Assembly: GCA_029265355.1 (NCBI GenBank)
Contig: JAJUJL010000005.1
Location: 168,339-232,338 of the forward strand
DNA length: 64,000 bases
Direction of reading: 5' to 3'
Source of the DNA: Chloroflexota bacterium
GTDB lineage: Bacteria > Chloroflexota > Anaerolineae > Anaerolineales > UBA4823
Shown here: piece by piece, positions 24,807 to 29,826 of the stretch
Layout of the letters: each line of letters begins with the position of its first letter
Numbering within the stretch: position 1 is the stretch's first letter
Program-made: the position numbers and the translations under genes
The notes under the pieces: generated by a model
Told to the model about the DNA's origin: nothing
Databases searched by the model: none
The model's input: the letters and a program-made list of their open reading frames with translations, nothing else

Positions 24807-26378
24807 TCACGGGCTGGAAAAGTAACGTTGTCTTAATTGCCCGAAATCAGCCTCTGTAAACTGCGCCAATAGCTCAAAAAAACCTTGGGCAGTCGCGATT
24901 TGATTTCGATTTTGATCCACGTACGCTTTGAGAAAAGCGGTGAAGGATTCATCGCCAACGGTTTTGCGCAGTTCTTCCAAAAAGACAGCCCCGTTGAGAT
25001 ACACAGCATCGCGATAGGCGCGATACCCCTCAGGGTTATAGATACTGCCATCCACCGCGCCGCGCGGCTGGTAATAATTCACCCGGTATGTCCACCACCA
25101 ATCCAACGCTTCAGGGTAGTAACGTTCGAAAAACAAGCGTTCGCTGTAGGTGCACAATGCTTCGTCAAGCCAGGGTTCGTTCCCTTGATCGTTGCCTACC
25201 AACCCATAAAACCACTGGTGAGCGGTTTCATGCGCGGCAATGGCGATCAGATATTCCGCCGGCGTTCCCTGATACAGGTTGTAGAACCCATTGCTCAAAA
25301 AGTACAAACCGTCGTATTCCATTCCGTCCAGGAAATCTGCCTCTACCACAGACAGCGTCTTGCGTGGGTAATCGCCAAAAAGCTGGTTGAATAGCGCCAG
25401 TGCTTTGATGGTGGTGTCCAACACTGCCTCGCCCGCCGCGGGATGGAAAGGGAAGGTGTAAGCTGTGACTTCGACATTCCCAACCTGCGCACTTTTCACC
25501 TGGTATTGGGTGCTGACCGATAGAGCAAAGCCGCGCGCCTTTTCGAGGTGATATCGCCGCCACTCGCCCTCCACTTGAGCGGGGGCGCTGGCAGCAACAA
25601 CATGAAACGAGTTCTCGTCCGAAATTCGCAGATTCACCGTGAAATTGGCTGCTTCGTATGCCAGGTGTTCGCCAAAAAAGAAGGCCTTATTCGCCAACCA
25701 TCCGCTTCCCTCGCGATAGGGTGGAATGAATGGATACCAATCGACCAGGTTGGTCTGGCGTTCGGTGTAGCCGAAGGGTATAGGGCGTGTTTCTGCAGAG
25801 GGCGTCGGCGAGGGCAGTTGGATGGCATAGGAGATTGCCAGGGAAAGGATCTCTCCCGGCATCAATGGCGTGATCAGGGGCAGGGTGATCTGTCCCGTAT
25901 CCCAGGCAATTTCGCCGATCGCAGGCCCAGACTGGGAGGTGATGCTGTTGAGTTGAAACGCTCCCGGGTAATAGGCTGGCTCGATCATCAGGCGGATATC
26001 CGGCAGCGGTTCGCTGGAACGGTTCTGATAGCGGATTTGTTGATCGACGGCGATATAGTGGGTCGAATAGTTCAAGACCGCCGTCAGGGTATAGAATGCG
26101 CTGGGTTCAAAGCTGGCAGGAGGCGGGACGAAGGTGGGGGAGGGCGTCTCTGTGCCAGGCGCAGGATTCCCGGCGATCGCCGGTTGCGTGATGGCCGGAG
26201 GAGAGATTGGCAGCGATGTAGCGGTGCGCTCGATCAGGCTGGCATCATTGCCTTCGGGGCGGCTGGCCGGTGTTTGGTCAGGAGAATTGGCCTGGCAACC
26301 TGCCAATACCATCACCAATAAGATGAGCAGCAGCCAATGACGGGATCGCGGCCTGGATTTCATATCAAGCAAGACCAA
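24807..26378 (-). CDS. M1-family metallopeptidase, lipoprotein with Pro/Thr linker
   Basis: LAGC lipobox, GMEY, AHETAHQWF...WLDEAL, Y..GAVFL. Confidence 0.9.
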   Translation of the reverse strand: MVLLDMKSRPRSRHWLLLILLVMVLAGCQANSPDQTPASRPEGNDASLIERTATSLPISPPAITQPAIAGNPAPGTETPSPTFVPPPASFEPSAFYTLTAVLNYSTHYIAVDQQIRYQNRSSEPLPDIRLMIEPAYYPGAFQLNSITSQSGPAIGEIAWDTGQITLPLITPLMPGEILSLAISYAIQLPSPTPSAETRPIPFGYTERQTNLVDWYPFIPPYREGSGWLANKAFFFGEHLAYEAANFTVNLRISDENSFHVVAASAPAQVEGEWRRYHLEKARGFALSVSTQYQVKSAQVGNVEVTAYTFPFHPAAGEAVLDTTIKALALFNQLFGDYPRKTLSVVEADFLDGMEYDGLYFLSNGFYNLYQGTPAEYLIAIAAHETAHQWFYGLVGNDQGNEPWLDEALCTYSERLFFERYYPEALDWWWTYRVNYYQPRGAVDGSIYNPEGYRAYRDAVYLNGAVFLEELRKTVGDESFTAFLKAYVDQNRNQIATAQGFFELLAQFTEADFGQLRQRYFSSP

Positions 26379-26402: not shown

Positions 26403-27356
26403 TCAGCCGGTCATCTCGGCGCGCACTTTTTGATACAAAGCCTCAGCTTTCAATTCACTGAGCGTGTAGCAAGGAGCATGGAGGTGTTCTGCCAGCGATT
26501 GCGCCAGTCCCTGGTCGAAAGCGGCGTGTTCCATATTGATGACCACGCAGCGAATTTCATCTCCGGCGATTTGATTTGCTATGCGGTGGGACTCTTCTTG
26601 AGGCGGCAGGTTTGTCAGGGATACATTGCCGGCGCCATCCGTCAGCAGAATGATCAGCGGGTTGACATCCGGGTGCACAATGCGCTCTTTGCGGATCACC
26701 TCGTGTGCCAGGAGCAAGCCGGCGGAGAGCGGGGTCTTACCGCCAACTGGGATATCGGCCAGTGAACGCTGCGCCAACTGCACCGAGTTGGTCGGGGGGA
26801 GCACCAGCGTGGCGCGATCTTTCTGGAAAACAACCAGGCCAACTCGATCGCGGCGTTGGTAGGCGTCGGTGAGCAGAGATAGGATAGCTCCTTTGGTGGC
26901 CGCCATACGCTCAGCGACAGCCATTGACCAGGAAGCATCCACCACAAACAGCACCAGGTTGGAGGCCTTCTTGATGCGAATTTTGCGCTGGTAATCGGAT
27001 GACCGCACTGCGAAAGCGACGCGTTTGCGCATCTCACTGCGCTGGCGTTGAAATGGCGCTGCGGCGCGCAAGGTAGCATCGAAAGCCAGGTCTTCTGGTT
27101 CACCAGGGGAAGGGCGCGCCTGGATGTAGCGGCCGCGTTTTCGATCGGTGCGGGTGCGCGAACGGCGGCCCCCTTGACGGCGGGTCATACGGTCCAGAGG
27201 ATTTTCGATTTTGCGCGGGACGAACGATTGCCCGATCTTGACCTTTTCGCCGCCTTCCCACCAGTTGGCGCGCCCGGTGTCGAACACCTGTTGGGGAGCT
27301 GGCTCTGCTGGTTGTCGGCTAGAGTCCTCTTCCGGTAAAATCTCCGGTGTTATCCC
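26403..27356 (-). CDS. C-terminal (linker + VWA) half of ChlD/CobT-like chelatase medium subunit, reached by -1 shift from the upstream ORF
   Basis: FVVDASWSM (MIDAS), GGKTPL, LLTDG. The frame is open upstream of the ORF-track GTG (27287) through the A10 run. Confidence 0.85.
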   Translation of the reverse strand, partial: GITPEILPEEDSSRQPAEPAPQQVFDTGRANWWEGGEKVKIGQSFVPRKIENPLDRMTRRQGGRRSRTRTDRKRGRYIQARPSPGEPEDLAFDATLRAAAPFQRQRSEMRKRVAFAVRSSDYQRKIRIKKASNLVLFVVDASWSMAVAERMAATKGAILSLLTDAYQRRDRVGLVVFQKDRATLVLPPTNSVQLAQRSLADIPVGGKTPLSAGLLLAHEVIRKERIVHPDVNPLIILLTDGAGNVSLTNLPPQEESHRIANQIAGDEIRCVVINMEHAAFDQGLAQSLAEHLHAPCYTLSELKAEALYQKVRAEMTG

Positions 27357-28453
27357 TTTTTTTTTTCTGAATTGGGCGGCTGGTTTTCATCCAGGGAGGG
27401 CTCAGGCTCGCCAGATGAGAAGGCTTGACCCTGTAGCTGTTCGATGCGCTCTTGCAGATCTTCCATGCTGATTTCAGCCTGGTGGAATGGGCCTCGTTTG
27501 ATGCGGTGCGGCAGAGCCAGTTCAGCCGCCAGGGCAATATCGCGATCGGAGATGGCTTTACGACCTTCGAACGCGGCGTGGGCGCGAGCCGTCTTCAGGA
27601 TTACCAGATCGGCGCGGTGACCATCGACATTCAAAGAGGCGCTCAAGGCGGCGATCGAGAGCAGGTCGCGCCGGTTGTAGGTGACTTGATCGACCAGCAA
27701 GCGCGCCTGGTCAATTTGGTGGGATAACTCTTCTTCGGAGTGCATCCAGCGCTTACGGAATTCTTCGGAATTGCTTTCGAACGACAGGTTGCGCTCCATG
27801 ATCAGCACGCGCTCTCTGGCGTCACGAATGCCATGAATTTCCACCGAGAGTGCAAAGCGGTCTAACAATTGGGGGCGCAGATCGCCCTCTTCGGGGTTCA
27901 TTGTGCCGACCAGGATAAAGCGCGCGGGGTGAGAGAAGGAGATGCCTTCGCGCTCGACGATGTTCATGCCCATGGCAGCGGAGTCCAGCAGCAAATCGAC
28001 CACATGATCATCCAGCAGGTTGACCTCGTCAATGTACAGCAGCCCGCGGTTGGCGGCTGCCAGCACGCCAGGCTCGAAGTGTCGTTCACCCTTCTGGATG
28101 GCCTTTTCGATGTCAAGCGTGCCGACCACGCGATCCTCTGTGGCCGAAACAGGCAGGTTGACAAAGGGCGTGGTGCGCAGTTCGACCGGCAGCATTTGCC
28201 CGCTCTCGGCCCGTTCGCGGCATTCTGTGCACCAGGTGGTTGGGCGGTCCGGGTCGCAGCCGAAGCGACAATCCGCCACCACGGCGACCTTTGGCAGCAG
28301 CGCAGCCAGAGCCCTGGCAGCGGTGGACTTGGCGGTGCCGCGCTCTCCCCGGATCAGGACGCCGCCAATGCGGGGGTCCACGGCGTTCAAAACCAGGGCG
28401 CGTTTCATACGCTCCTGTCCAACAATGGCGGTAAAGGGATAGATGTAAGGCAT
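27350..28453 (-). CDS. ChlI/BchI-like AAA+ chelatase ATPase subunit (N-terminal half of a frameshifted chlD-like gene)
   Basis: YPFTAIVGQE, GERGTAKST, ATEDRVVGTLD, LYIDEVNLL, MNPEEGDLRPQLLDRF, DGHRAD. Confidence 0.93.
   Translation of the reverse strand: MPYIYPFTAIVGQERMKRALVLNAVDPRIGGVLIRGERGTAKSTAARALAALLPKVAVVADCRFGCDPDRPTTWCTECRERAESGQMLPVELRTTPFVNLPVSATEDRVVGTLDIEKAIQKGERHFEPGVLAAANRGLLYIDEVNLLDDHVVDLLLDSAAMGMNIVEREGISFSHPARFILVGTMNPEEGDLRPQLLDRFALSVEIHGIRDARERVLIMERNLSFESNSEEFRKRWMHSEEELSHQIDQARLLVDQVTYNRRDLLSIAALSASLNVDGHRADLVILKTARAHAAFEGRKAISDRDIALAAELALPHRIKRGPFHQAEISMEDLQERIEQLQGQAFSSGEPEPSLDENQPPNSEKKKG
27357..27366 (-). other. A10 slippery site (programmed -1 frameshift or transcriptional slippage)
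   Basis: GAA AAA AAA AAG GGA TAA. The -1 frame reads KGITPEILPEEDSSRQPAEPAPQQVFDTG into the VWA ORF. Confidence 0.75.
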
Positions 28454-28508
28454 TTACTCCACTCCAGCAGGCATTATAACCCACTCTCACGATATTTAAT
28501 CGCGAAGG

Positions 28509-28537
28509 TTGCCAAGTTCTTTGCTCCGAATTATAAT
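28509..28537 (+). promoter_or_regulatory. Sigma70-type promoter of rpsA
   Basis: TTGCCA-N17-TATAAT. Confidence 0.75.
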
Positions 28538-28578
28538 GGTAAGTACATCCTATCCACACTTGGAGCAAGCCTTTTATT

Positions 28579-29826
28579 ATGGAAGAGAAAGACGTCCTCA
28601 TCGGGCACGGGGGTCAGCCCGCAAGCGAGCAAGCAGACACCACACCACAACCGGAAACAGCATCGATGGAATCCCTGTTGGAGGCGGAAGGCCTTGGCCT
28701 GGATTTCCCCAAACAAGGAGAGATACGCACGGGCGTGGTCGCTACCCTGGGAGAGAATGAAATCCTGGTTAGCATTGGAACCAAATCGGAGGGAGTGATC
28801 TCCGGGCGTGAGCTGGAAGCCATTCCAGCAGAAGAACGCGCCGCACTGCGCGTAGGGGATCGTATTCCCGTGTTTGTTGTGGTTCCTGAAGATGCGAACG
28901 GCAACGTTGTATTGTCCTATGTGCGCGCTCGCGAAGAAAGGGATTGGGAAGAAGCCGAAGCTTTGTTGGAGTCGAACGCAGTGTACGATAGCAAGATTAT
29001 CGGCTTCAATAAAGGCGGCTTGCTCGTCCCCGTGGGGCGCCTGCGCGGCTTTGTGCCGGCCTCTCAAATCAGTATGGTGCGCCGCGCCAGCATGTCGGGA
29101 GACACGCCAGACCAGCGTTGGGGCAGAATGGTGGGTGAGCATATCCGGGTTAAGGTCATCGAGGTCGACCGTGAACGGCGCCGCCTGATCCTTTCTGAGC
29201 GATCTGCCTTGCAAGAGACGCGCGAATCATTAAAGGATCGCCTGCTGGATGAACTGCAGGTTGGGGATGTGCGCAAGGGGCGCGTCACCAGCGTGGCCGA
29301 ATTCGGCGCCTTTGTGAATATTGATGGCGCAGATGGCCTGGTGCATCTTTCTGAGATTTCCTGGGATCGCATACAGCACCCCAACGAGGTGCTCAAAGTG
29401 GGCCAGGAAGTAGATGTAAAAGTCATCAGCATCGACCGCGATCGCAAACGCATTGGCCTTTCCATTCGCCAGCTTCAGGCTGATCCCTGGGTGAAGCGCA
29501 TGGGGCACATCAAAGAGGGCCAACTGATCGAAGGCAAAATCACCCACCTGACCAAATTTGGCGCTTTTGCCAGCCTGGGCGAAGACCTTGAAGGGTTGAT
29601 CCACGTCTCCGAGCTGAGCGAGCAGCGCATTGGTCACCCCAAAGAGGTGGTCAAAGAAGGTGATGTGTTAACCCTGCGGGTGATCAAAATCGACGCCGAG
29701 CGCAGGCGCATCGGTTTAAGCCTGCGCAAAGTCGATTCGCCCCAATATGCCGACCTGGATTACAAGACTTTCCTGGCCGAAGGCGCAGAGCAATCGAAGG
29801 GCGACGAAACAGAGCCGGAAGAGTAG
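28579..29826 (+). CDS. rpsA: 30S ribosomal protein S1 (four S1 domains)
   Basis: FNKGGL, GFVPASQ, FGAFVNIDGADGLVHLSEISW, RIGLSIRQ. Confidence 0.95.
   Translation: MEEKDVLIGHGGQPASEQADTTPQPETASMESLLEAEGLGLDFPKQGEIRTGVVATLGENEILVSIGTKSEGVISGRELEAIPAEERAALRVGDRIPVFVVVPEDANGNVVLSYVRAREERDWEEAEALLESNAVYDSKIIGFNKGGLLVPVGRLRGFVPASQISMVRRASMSGDTPDQRWGRMVGEHIRVKVIEVDRERRRLILSERSALQETRESLKDRLLDELQVGDVRKGRVTSVAEFGAFVNIDGADGLVHLSEISWDRIQHPNEVLKVGQEVDVKVISIDRDRKRIGLSIRQLQADPWVKRMGHIKEGQLIEGKITHLTKFGAFASLGEDLEGLIHVSELSEQRIGHPKEVVKEGDVLTLRVIKIDAERRRIGLSLRKVDSPQYADLDYKTFLAEGAEQSKGDETEPEE

Follow-up and report, generated by a model that had tools for sequence, protein, structure and literature searches.

Background

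A single chlD gene can reportedly yield two cobalt chelatase subunits, a result said to have been published by Antonov in 2020 in Mol Biol Evol. A 'magnesium chelatase' frameshift cluster was described and tested by Antonov et al. in 2013 in NAR (PMC3711429) and was reviewed by Atkins et al. in 2016 (PMC5009743). Within the Anaerolineae, fs-chlD genes were recorded in Brevefilum, Anaerolinea thermophila, Ornatilinea, Longilinea and Levilinea by Kuznetsov, Milenkin & Antonov 2022 (PMC9227772). The species they list lack cobN/chlH as well as the pathways for B12 and chlorophyll, a separate chlI is present in some of them, and the authors give the function of the gene as unknown (PMC9227772). Here we analyse an fs-chlD-type locus in a 64,000-nucleotide stretch (the window) of contig JAJUJL010000005.1 from a hot-spring Chloroflexota bacterium of the order Anaerolineales (assembly GCA_029265355.1). 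The region was read on both strands, and both halves of the gene lie on the minus strand.

The locus resembles the described fs-chlD genes in all essentials and is another member of the group. It has a ChlI-like AAA+ open reading frame (ORF) that overlaps a VWA ORF, a poly-A or A_AAA_AAR sequence in the overlap, and two predicted subunits from one gene; the Anaerolineae host, the missing cobN and the presence of a separate chlI are also as described (PMC9227772). Three marks by which fs-chlD genes are recognized are present, in that ORFs in different frames overlap, the slippery site is conserved, and the predicted fusion shows homology to in-frame ChlD-type proteins from end to end.

An earlier note, made from the sequence alone, had read the locus as one chelatase gene with two products joined at a run of ten adenines (A10). 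Our analysis supports this interpretation, and we put the probability that one chlD-type gene (fs-chlD, TIGR02442) gives two products via A10 at about 85%. Standard decoding would stop two codons past the run and produce a 367-aa ChlI-like AAA+ ATPase, the 'small subunit'. In a share of expression events, a slip by one base (net -1) would produce a 683-aa ChlD-like 'medium subunit', in which an acidic linker would join the identical AAA+ module to a VWA/MIDAS domain.

Probably one gene in two reading frames

The AAA+ ORF ends in ...PPNSEKKKG* on GAAAAAAAAAAGGGATAA. The zero-frame codons at the run are GAA AAA AAA AAG GGA TAA, and the stop codon TAA occupies 27350-27352. The -1 frame is open from stop to stop between 27386 and 26403 (327 codons) and reads KGITPEILPEEDSSRQPAEPAPQQVFDTG... 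into the VWA/MIDAS ORF. The zero and -1 frames are both open only in a short overlap around the run (Table 1), and the shift must therefore happen there. A one-base backward slip after AAG gives a fusion of 683 aa (26403..28453), with the junction ...NSEKKK-GITPEILPEEDSSRQPAEPAPQQVFDTG.... The ORFs, the A10 run and the coordinates given in the earlier note, which had the AAA+ ORF ending in NSEKKKG* and the -1 frame open into the VWA ORF, all proved correct.

Family membership supports the fusion as the full-length protein. Against the NCBIfam model TIGR02442 ('putative cobaltochelatase', a partner of CobN of the ChlI/ChlD type), the fusion scores 795.4 bits in one uninterrupted stretch that covers model positions 1-640 of 641, where the curated cut-off is 779.45 bits and neither half alone would reach it. 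This supports the pair of proteins claimed beforehand, a ChlD-like one of ~683 aa and a ChlI-like one of 367 aa. Pfam places Mg_chelatase, AAA_5 and AAA_lid_2 at residues 98-334 of the fusion, with AAA_5 as a weaker match overlapping Mg_chelatase, and VWA_2 and VWA at residues 501-652. The ATPase is matched best by Mg_chelatase and TIGR02442/TIGR02030. Solved ChlI/BchI structures (8osf, 6l8d and 1g8p, with E from 1e-92 to 1e-100) align with residues 4-327, and the BchD VWA domain (2x31_A, E = 7.6e-19) with residues 498-638. As judged by motif matches alone, the AAA+ module (Walker A/B, Arg finger) and the MIDAS would fit a class I chelatase motor.

The length of the run was checked in public data. 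The earlier note had considered that a homopolymer error might hide an A11; contigs from three different public runs (two hot-spring metagenomes and one run labelled as a single organism; one of the three may be the source sample) span the site with 0 gaps and show A10 instead. The genome (5.05 Mb, 58.6% GC) holds 42 A/T runs of at least 9 in total, and the A10 described here is the sole one at the junction of two genuine long same-strand ORFs.

The alternative of two separate genes, in which no fusion would be made and the VWA half would use its own GTG (27287) or depend on reinitiation past the AAA+ stop, has some points in its favour. A GTG-started ORF of 294 aa does exist, and gene callers give two ORFs, as RefSeq did for the fs-chlD family (PMC3711429). 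However, the GTG at 27287 encodes the Val of the conserved QxVFD motif; it reads GTC in a same-genus relative and is no start codon in most orthologues. An ATG, GTG or TTG lies ahead of the first conserved linker residue in only 23 of 103 loci, and 54-55 of the 103 loci lack any start codon ahead of the conserved block. A translated start belonging to the VWA half, which the earlier note had named as a finding that would refute its proposal, has no conserved candidate. The unbroken match of the fusion to TIGR02442, above the cut-off, and the existence of in-frame full-length orthologues in about 55 genomes of the class also speak against two genes. We consider this explanation very improbable, and the VWA ORF at 26403..27287 is probably not an independent gene.

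Conservation of the junction in the Anaerolineae

The split is kept among relatives. Of 40 relatives in the same family and order, 38-39 carry the gene as a pair of neighbouring matches that cover roughly residues 1-367 and 361-683. Two genome sets were combined into an order-level set of 104 distinct Anaerolineales loci. A shift of -1 is needed in 98 of these and a shift of +1 in four, while the remaining two (L074 and L097) are in frame and keep the run. Orthologues that were always in frame had been named in the earlier note as a finding that would count against it, and these figures show the opposite. The run is A9 in 60 loci, A10 in 38, A14 in one and A6-A8 in five, so that 99 of the 104 orthologous loci have a run of A9 or longer at the same junction. 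Past the run, a stop codon comes at a median of 2 codons in the zero frame and 5 codons in the third frame across the 104 loci. Given these nearby stops, any slip gives either the short or the long protein.

At the level of the class, an even sample of 201 Anaerolineae genomes was surveyed. A strong TIGR02442 match was found in 181, with the gene in frame in about 55 and split in about 126. Of 18 in-frame orthologues examined from other families of the class, 13 keep A7-A10 at the same spot, and in the majority of the 13 at least one alternative frame runs into a stop within 1-9 codons.

Loci that are in frame, yet carry A9-A10 at the same linker position, were seen both in the order (L074 and L097) and in other families (L143-L147, L149, L150 and L152). 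Most of them meet a stop within a few codons in at least one of the alternative frames, and several do so in both. In these loci the DNA frame corresponds to the long form, and slippage would yield the short one, which is the arrangement of dnaX.

An artefact or a decaying gene, whether through homopolymer or assembly error, pseudogene formation or DNA-level phase variation that toggles the long form, is the least probable of the explanations that we considered. Homopolymers are error-prone, many of the compared genomes are metagenome-assembled, and an extra frame change is present near the junction in one metagenome-assembled genome (L062). Against this, the three runs agree on A10, and 102 of 104 species-level genomes keep the out-of-frame state, both halves being clearly conserved as protein; under random errors or phase variation, about one third would be expected in frame. 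In L062, an uncultured Chloroflexia genome from a long-read assembly, the -1 junction at A10 is accompanied by a second frame change ~100 nt downstream, in the conserved block, which is probably an assembly indel.

Transcriptional or ribosomal slippage

In the dnaX gene of Thermus, an A9 run is a site of transcriptional slippage, and E. coli ribosomes can slide on long lysine-encoding A tracts as well. For the present locus, we infer with slightly better than even confidence that RNA polymerase slippage, by which one A would be added to the mRNA, gives most of the shift. Ribosomal -1 slippage on A_AAA_AAG may act as the alternative or as an extra route, and we regard its involvement as a real but lesser possibility.

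Elements that might assist a ribosomal shift were sought on both sides of the run. Folding of the 70 nt past the run is not stronger than that of control windows taken from the same genes (mean z of -0.03 versus -0.09, p = 0.38), and a Shine-Dalgarno (SD)-like 4-mer 6-20 nt before the run is not a consistent feature, being present in 53 of 106 loci. Since no conserved flanking stimulator was found, the signal in this clade is the run itself.

The length of the runs and the mixed directions of the shift modestly favour transcriptional slippage over classic ribosomal frameshifting, as far as sequence comparison can indicate. Runs of at least 9 occur in 95% of the loci, though 7 are enough for a -1 shift by the ribosome. 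The run also varies in phase among orthologues, and four genomes need +1. Mixed shift direction among orthologues was used by Antonov et al. in 2013 as a criterion for transcriptional realignment (PMC3711429), and by that criterion the present orthologues, which differ in direction, point to transcriptional realignment. In the same work, Mg-chelatase cassettes in E. coli gave 10%, 40% and 63% frameshifting with 7, 9 and 11 A's (PMC3711429). These values confirm the statement of the earlier note that poly-A frameshifting has been reported for the chlD family; the gain with run length fits either route, as protein only was measured (PMC3711429).

Programmed -1 frameshifting that is purely ribosomal, acting on A_AAA_AAG in a homogeneous A10 mRNA and giving the same two products, is the rival that deserves most attention, although we judge it the less probable account. 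The zero-frame phase of the run yields the exact heptamer, and the literature terms the family programmed ribosomal frameshifting, with A_AAA_AAR under purifying selection (PMC5009743; PMC9227772). This account does not predict runs of nine or more in so many loci where the heptamer would do, and it is opposed by the four genomes that need +1, by the in-frame orthologues that retain the run, by the mixed directions under the criterion of Antonov et al. 2013 (PMC3711429), and by the want of an enriched downstream structure and of a consistent upstream SD-like element. Ribosomal frameshifting as such stays one reading of the site, and the sequence appears to lean slightly to slippage of the polymerase.

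The dnaX gene works in a similar way. It too encodes two proteins, a long one and a short one, which have an AAA+ module in common and arise by slippage on a run of A's, with the short one terminating just past the run. E. coli dnaX, in which the ribosome shifts by -1 on A_AAA_AAG, has the identical heptamer; the A9-A10 runs and the mixed frame need resemble the dnaX of Thermus (A9 in T. thermophilus) and that of the Chlorobi type. The protein family and the function are unrelated. The arrangement also differs, in that in most loci here the zero frame encodes the short protein and the long one would come from slippage, the reverse of E. coli dnaX.

Several points weigh against the reading of one gene with two products made mainly by polymerase slippage. 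A_AAA_AAG is the classic ribosomal -1 heptamer of dnaX, and the 98 of 104 loci that need -1 fit a ribosomal route; the four +1 loci could use other routes. The A10 check was made on assembled contigs, in which minor length variants of the DNA could go unseen. The production of both proteins and the share of the long form are themselves deduced from sequence. Public RNA runs matching the window held only fragments of other organisms, and the runs of two relatives gave low-depth contigs of unknown type or were empty.

A predicted chelatase-type motor without a large subunit

The earlier note had found no large subunit in the window, and this absence extends to the genome. There are 0 matches to PF02514, the large-subunit family (CobN/ChlH) by which a class I tetrapyrrole chelatase is recognized, in a genome that is 98% complete. 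A highly diverged CobN overlooked by the profile was also considered and was rejected after a tblastn search of the genome with the CobN of a relative, which gave nothing better than E = 0.12. CobN is present in one of 41 relatives and absent from the other 40. In the class sample it occurs in 15-16 of 201 genomes, versus 181 of 201 for the fs-chlD-type gene, and the orphan state, in which the gene is present without CobN/ChlH, is found in at least 165 of the 201. As this genome and most of the Anaerolineae lack the large subunit, the client of the motor cannot be the canonical one.

HemB is present and CbiC is absent, so that the organism makes tetrapyrroles but not the corrin ring. By the description of the model, TIGR02442 proteins occur with CobN and/or B12 biosynthesis genes. 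The genome has neither CobN nor CbiC, and the gene is flanked by those for an S1 protein and an M1 peptidase.

If they behave like ChlI-ChlD and CobS-CobT, the short and long products would form a two-tier AAA+ motor, in which the MIDAS domain would dock the client and pass on the ATP-driven movement. Class I chelatase motors (ChlI-ChlD-ChlH for Mg and CobS-CobT-CobN for Co) share the ChlI-type AAA+ fold and a VWA domain whose MIDAS reads DxSxS...T...D, and a two-tier ring is expected for them as well (bioRxiv 10.64898/2026.10.09.757910). The present system differs from them in having no ChlH/CobN and no CbiC, and in that both subunits would carry the identical, apparently active AAA+ module. 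The MoxR-type pairs CbbQ-CbbO and NorQ-NorD offer a second parallel, with an AAA+ ring and a VWA/MIDAS adaptor that remodel or metallate a client enzyme. The ATPase here is, however, of the ChlI/BchI type, and no client gene is adjacent.

The linker between the two domains has features of its own. In an alignment from the run onwards, a variable acidic stretch is followed by a conserved block with the consensus P..Q.VFD..ANWW.GG.KVK.GE.F.PR.LD.PLD, which might serve in docking or as a pore 'finger'. Three copies from CobN-bearing genomes (L137, L138 and L141), which we assumed to be CobN-linked, lack both this orphan-type block and the A-run. The Cys4 insert that follows Walker A is, by comparison, common to every copy checked, including these three.

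A second, stand-alone ChlI-like AAA+ gene lies outside the window on contig C5 (166528-169718, minus strand; L133). Its product shares 39% identity with the fs-chlD ATPase and has its own Cys4 insert and an N-terminal extension of ~55 aa. The gene is flanked by a 4HBT thioesterase and by a URO-D-family protein (PF01208, with weak MtaA/CmuA similarity), and in 14 of 19 relatives the URO-D gene is next after the ChlI-like paralog. This cluster is possibly a tetrapyrrole- or corrinoid-linked system, and it may be related to the orphan motor. The paralog adds to the other side of the balance, in that it could supply the small subunit and make the short product less needed. So does the genomic context, where neither the order nor the class level has conserved neighbours that point to a client.

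Features of the locus and its neighbours

The motifs of both domains and the flanking genes are collected in Table 1.

Table 1. Features of the chlD-type locus and its flanks, with positions in the window
Feature	Position	Strand	Remarks
S1-domain (rpsA-like) gene	28579-29826	+	415 aa, several S1 domains, divergent to the chlD-type gene
Intergenic region shared with the divergent S1-domain gene	28454..28578	both	125 nt
AAA+ zero-frame ORF (predicted short product)	28453..27350	-	367-aa ChlI-like AAA+ ATPase
Walker A, GERGTAKST	28322-28348	-	motif match
Cys4 insert, CRFGC...CTEC	28220-28270	-	motif match, after Walker A
Walker B, LLYIDEVN	28019-28042	-	motif match
PQLLDRF	27854-27874	-	motif match
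End of AAA lid, LPHRIKR	27494-27514	-	motif match
Two-frame overlap, zero and -1 frames both open	27350..27386	-	37 nt, stop-to-stop ORFs
A10 slippery run	27366..27357	- (T10 on + strand)	heptamer A_AAA_AAG
-1-frame continuation (predicted long product)	26403..27367	-	acidic Pro-rich linker, conserved block, VWA domain
'Stand-alone' VWA ORF as a gene caller would give it	26403..27287	-	GTG start, 294 aa
Conserved linker block, ANWWEGGEKVKIGQSFVPRKIENPLDRMTRR	27177-27269	-	VWA-frame alignment
MIDAS, DASWS	26925-26939	-	motif intact
MIDAS, GGKTPL	26727-26744	-	motif intact
MIDAS, LTDGAGN	26625-26645	-	motif intact
M1-family zinc peptidase, lipoprotein signal (…VLAGC)	24807..26378	-	begins 25 nt past the VWA stop

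The intergenic region upstream of the gene has signals on both strands. On the minus strand it holds a TATAAT-like box and GGAGTGGAG 4 nt ahead of the ATG, and on the plus strand the S1 gene has a strong promoter-like site there, TTGCCA-17-TATAAT. This divergent gene is kept in 52 of the 86 loci with enough upstream flank and leads the order-level neighbour count with 65 loci. A dipeptidase-like gene, named from sequence only, comes second with 31 loci.

Downstream, no terminator-like site was found between the VWA stop and the M1 peptidase gene, the next one on the minus strand being at 24817-24801, and the peptidase is probably co-transcribed with the chlD-type gene here, to go by the layout of the sequence. 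The peptidase was considered as a conserved partner and was rejected, being adjacent in just 10 of 65 loci. Across the other families of the class, the only recurrent neighbour is a gene for a ~316-aa membrane protein that looks EamA/DMT-like, again named from its sequence alone, which lies directly downstream on the same strand in 13 of 35 loci (L154-L188). None of these neighbours suggests a client.

A role in anti-phage defence was also considered. PADLOC gave only a weak generic AAA+ match of 26 bits, and the chlD-type gene is vertically conserved beside the S1 gene.

Two other long A/T runs of the genome were examined as recoding candidates and rejected, as neither looked like part of a coding sequence. 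The first falls in the DNA between a Fur-like gene and a CbiM/NikM-like gene, and the second inside an ORF judged spurious from its translation. On contig C26 (24521-24529, minus strand), an A9 run stands immediately 5' of GGAGG and the ATG of a CbiM/NikM-like metal transporter gene and just downstream of a Fur-like regulator gene. It is intergenic and no recoding site, and both genes are named by sequence only.

Implications

The site is real and strongly conserved, and it is already published for the gene family and for this group, including the missing large subunit. To this our analysis adds counts over 104 loci and 201 genomes and the result that no flanking stimulator was detected in the clade. 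It further adds the +1 and in-frame variants that retain the run, and a linker block that is absent from three presumed CobN-linked copies. As recoding goes, the locus is a textbook-like example whose main use is in annotation, where the two ORFs are best treated as one gene with two products. With no flanking stimulators to complicate the comparison, the clade also offers a clean natural test of transcriptional versus ribosomal slippage.

The ChlI/ChlD motor is nearly universal in the Anaerolineae without the subunit that holds the tetrapyrrole, and what it acts on is the question posed by Kuznetsov et al. 2022 (PMC9227772). Across the class the orphan state prevails, in at least 165 of 201 genomes, and is not a trait of a few odd species, which makes a search for the client worthwhile. 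In our estimate there is an even chance that the Anaerolineae motor is a distinct, CobN/ChlH-independent subfamily of ChlI/ChlD-type motors. Such a subfamily would be present in ~90% of the genomes of the class (CobN in ~8%), carry its own linker block (ANWWxGGxKVKxGxxFxPRxLxxPLD), and have its subunit balance set by transcriptional slippage on poly-A. Its DNA frame would have toggled between the short and the long form in evolution, and its client would be something other than a class I large subunit. If this is true, it would be a new job for the ChlI/ChlD-type motor.

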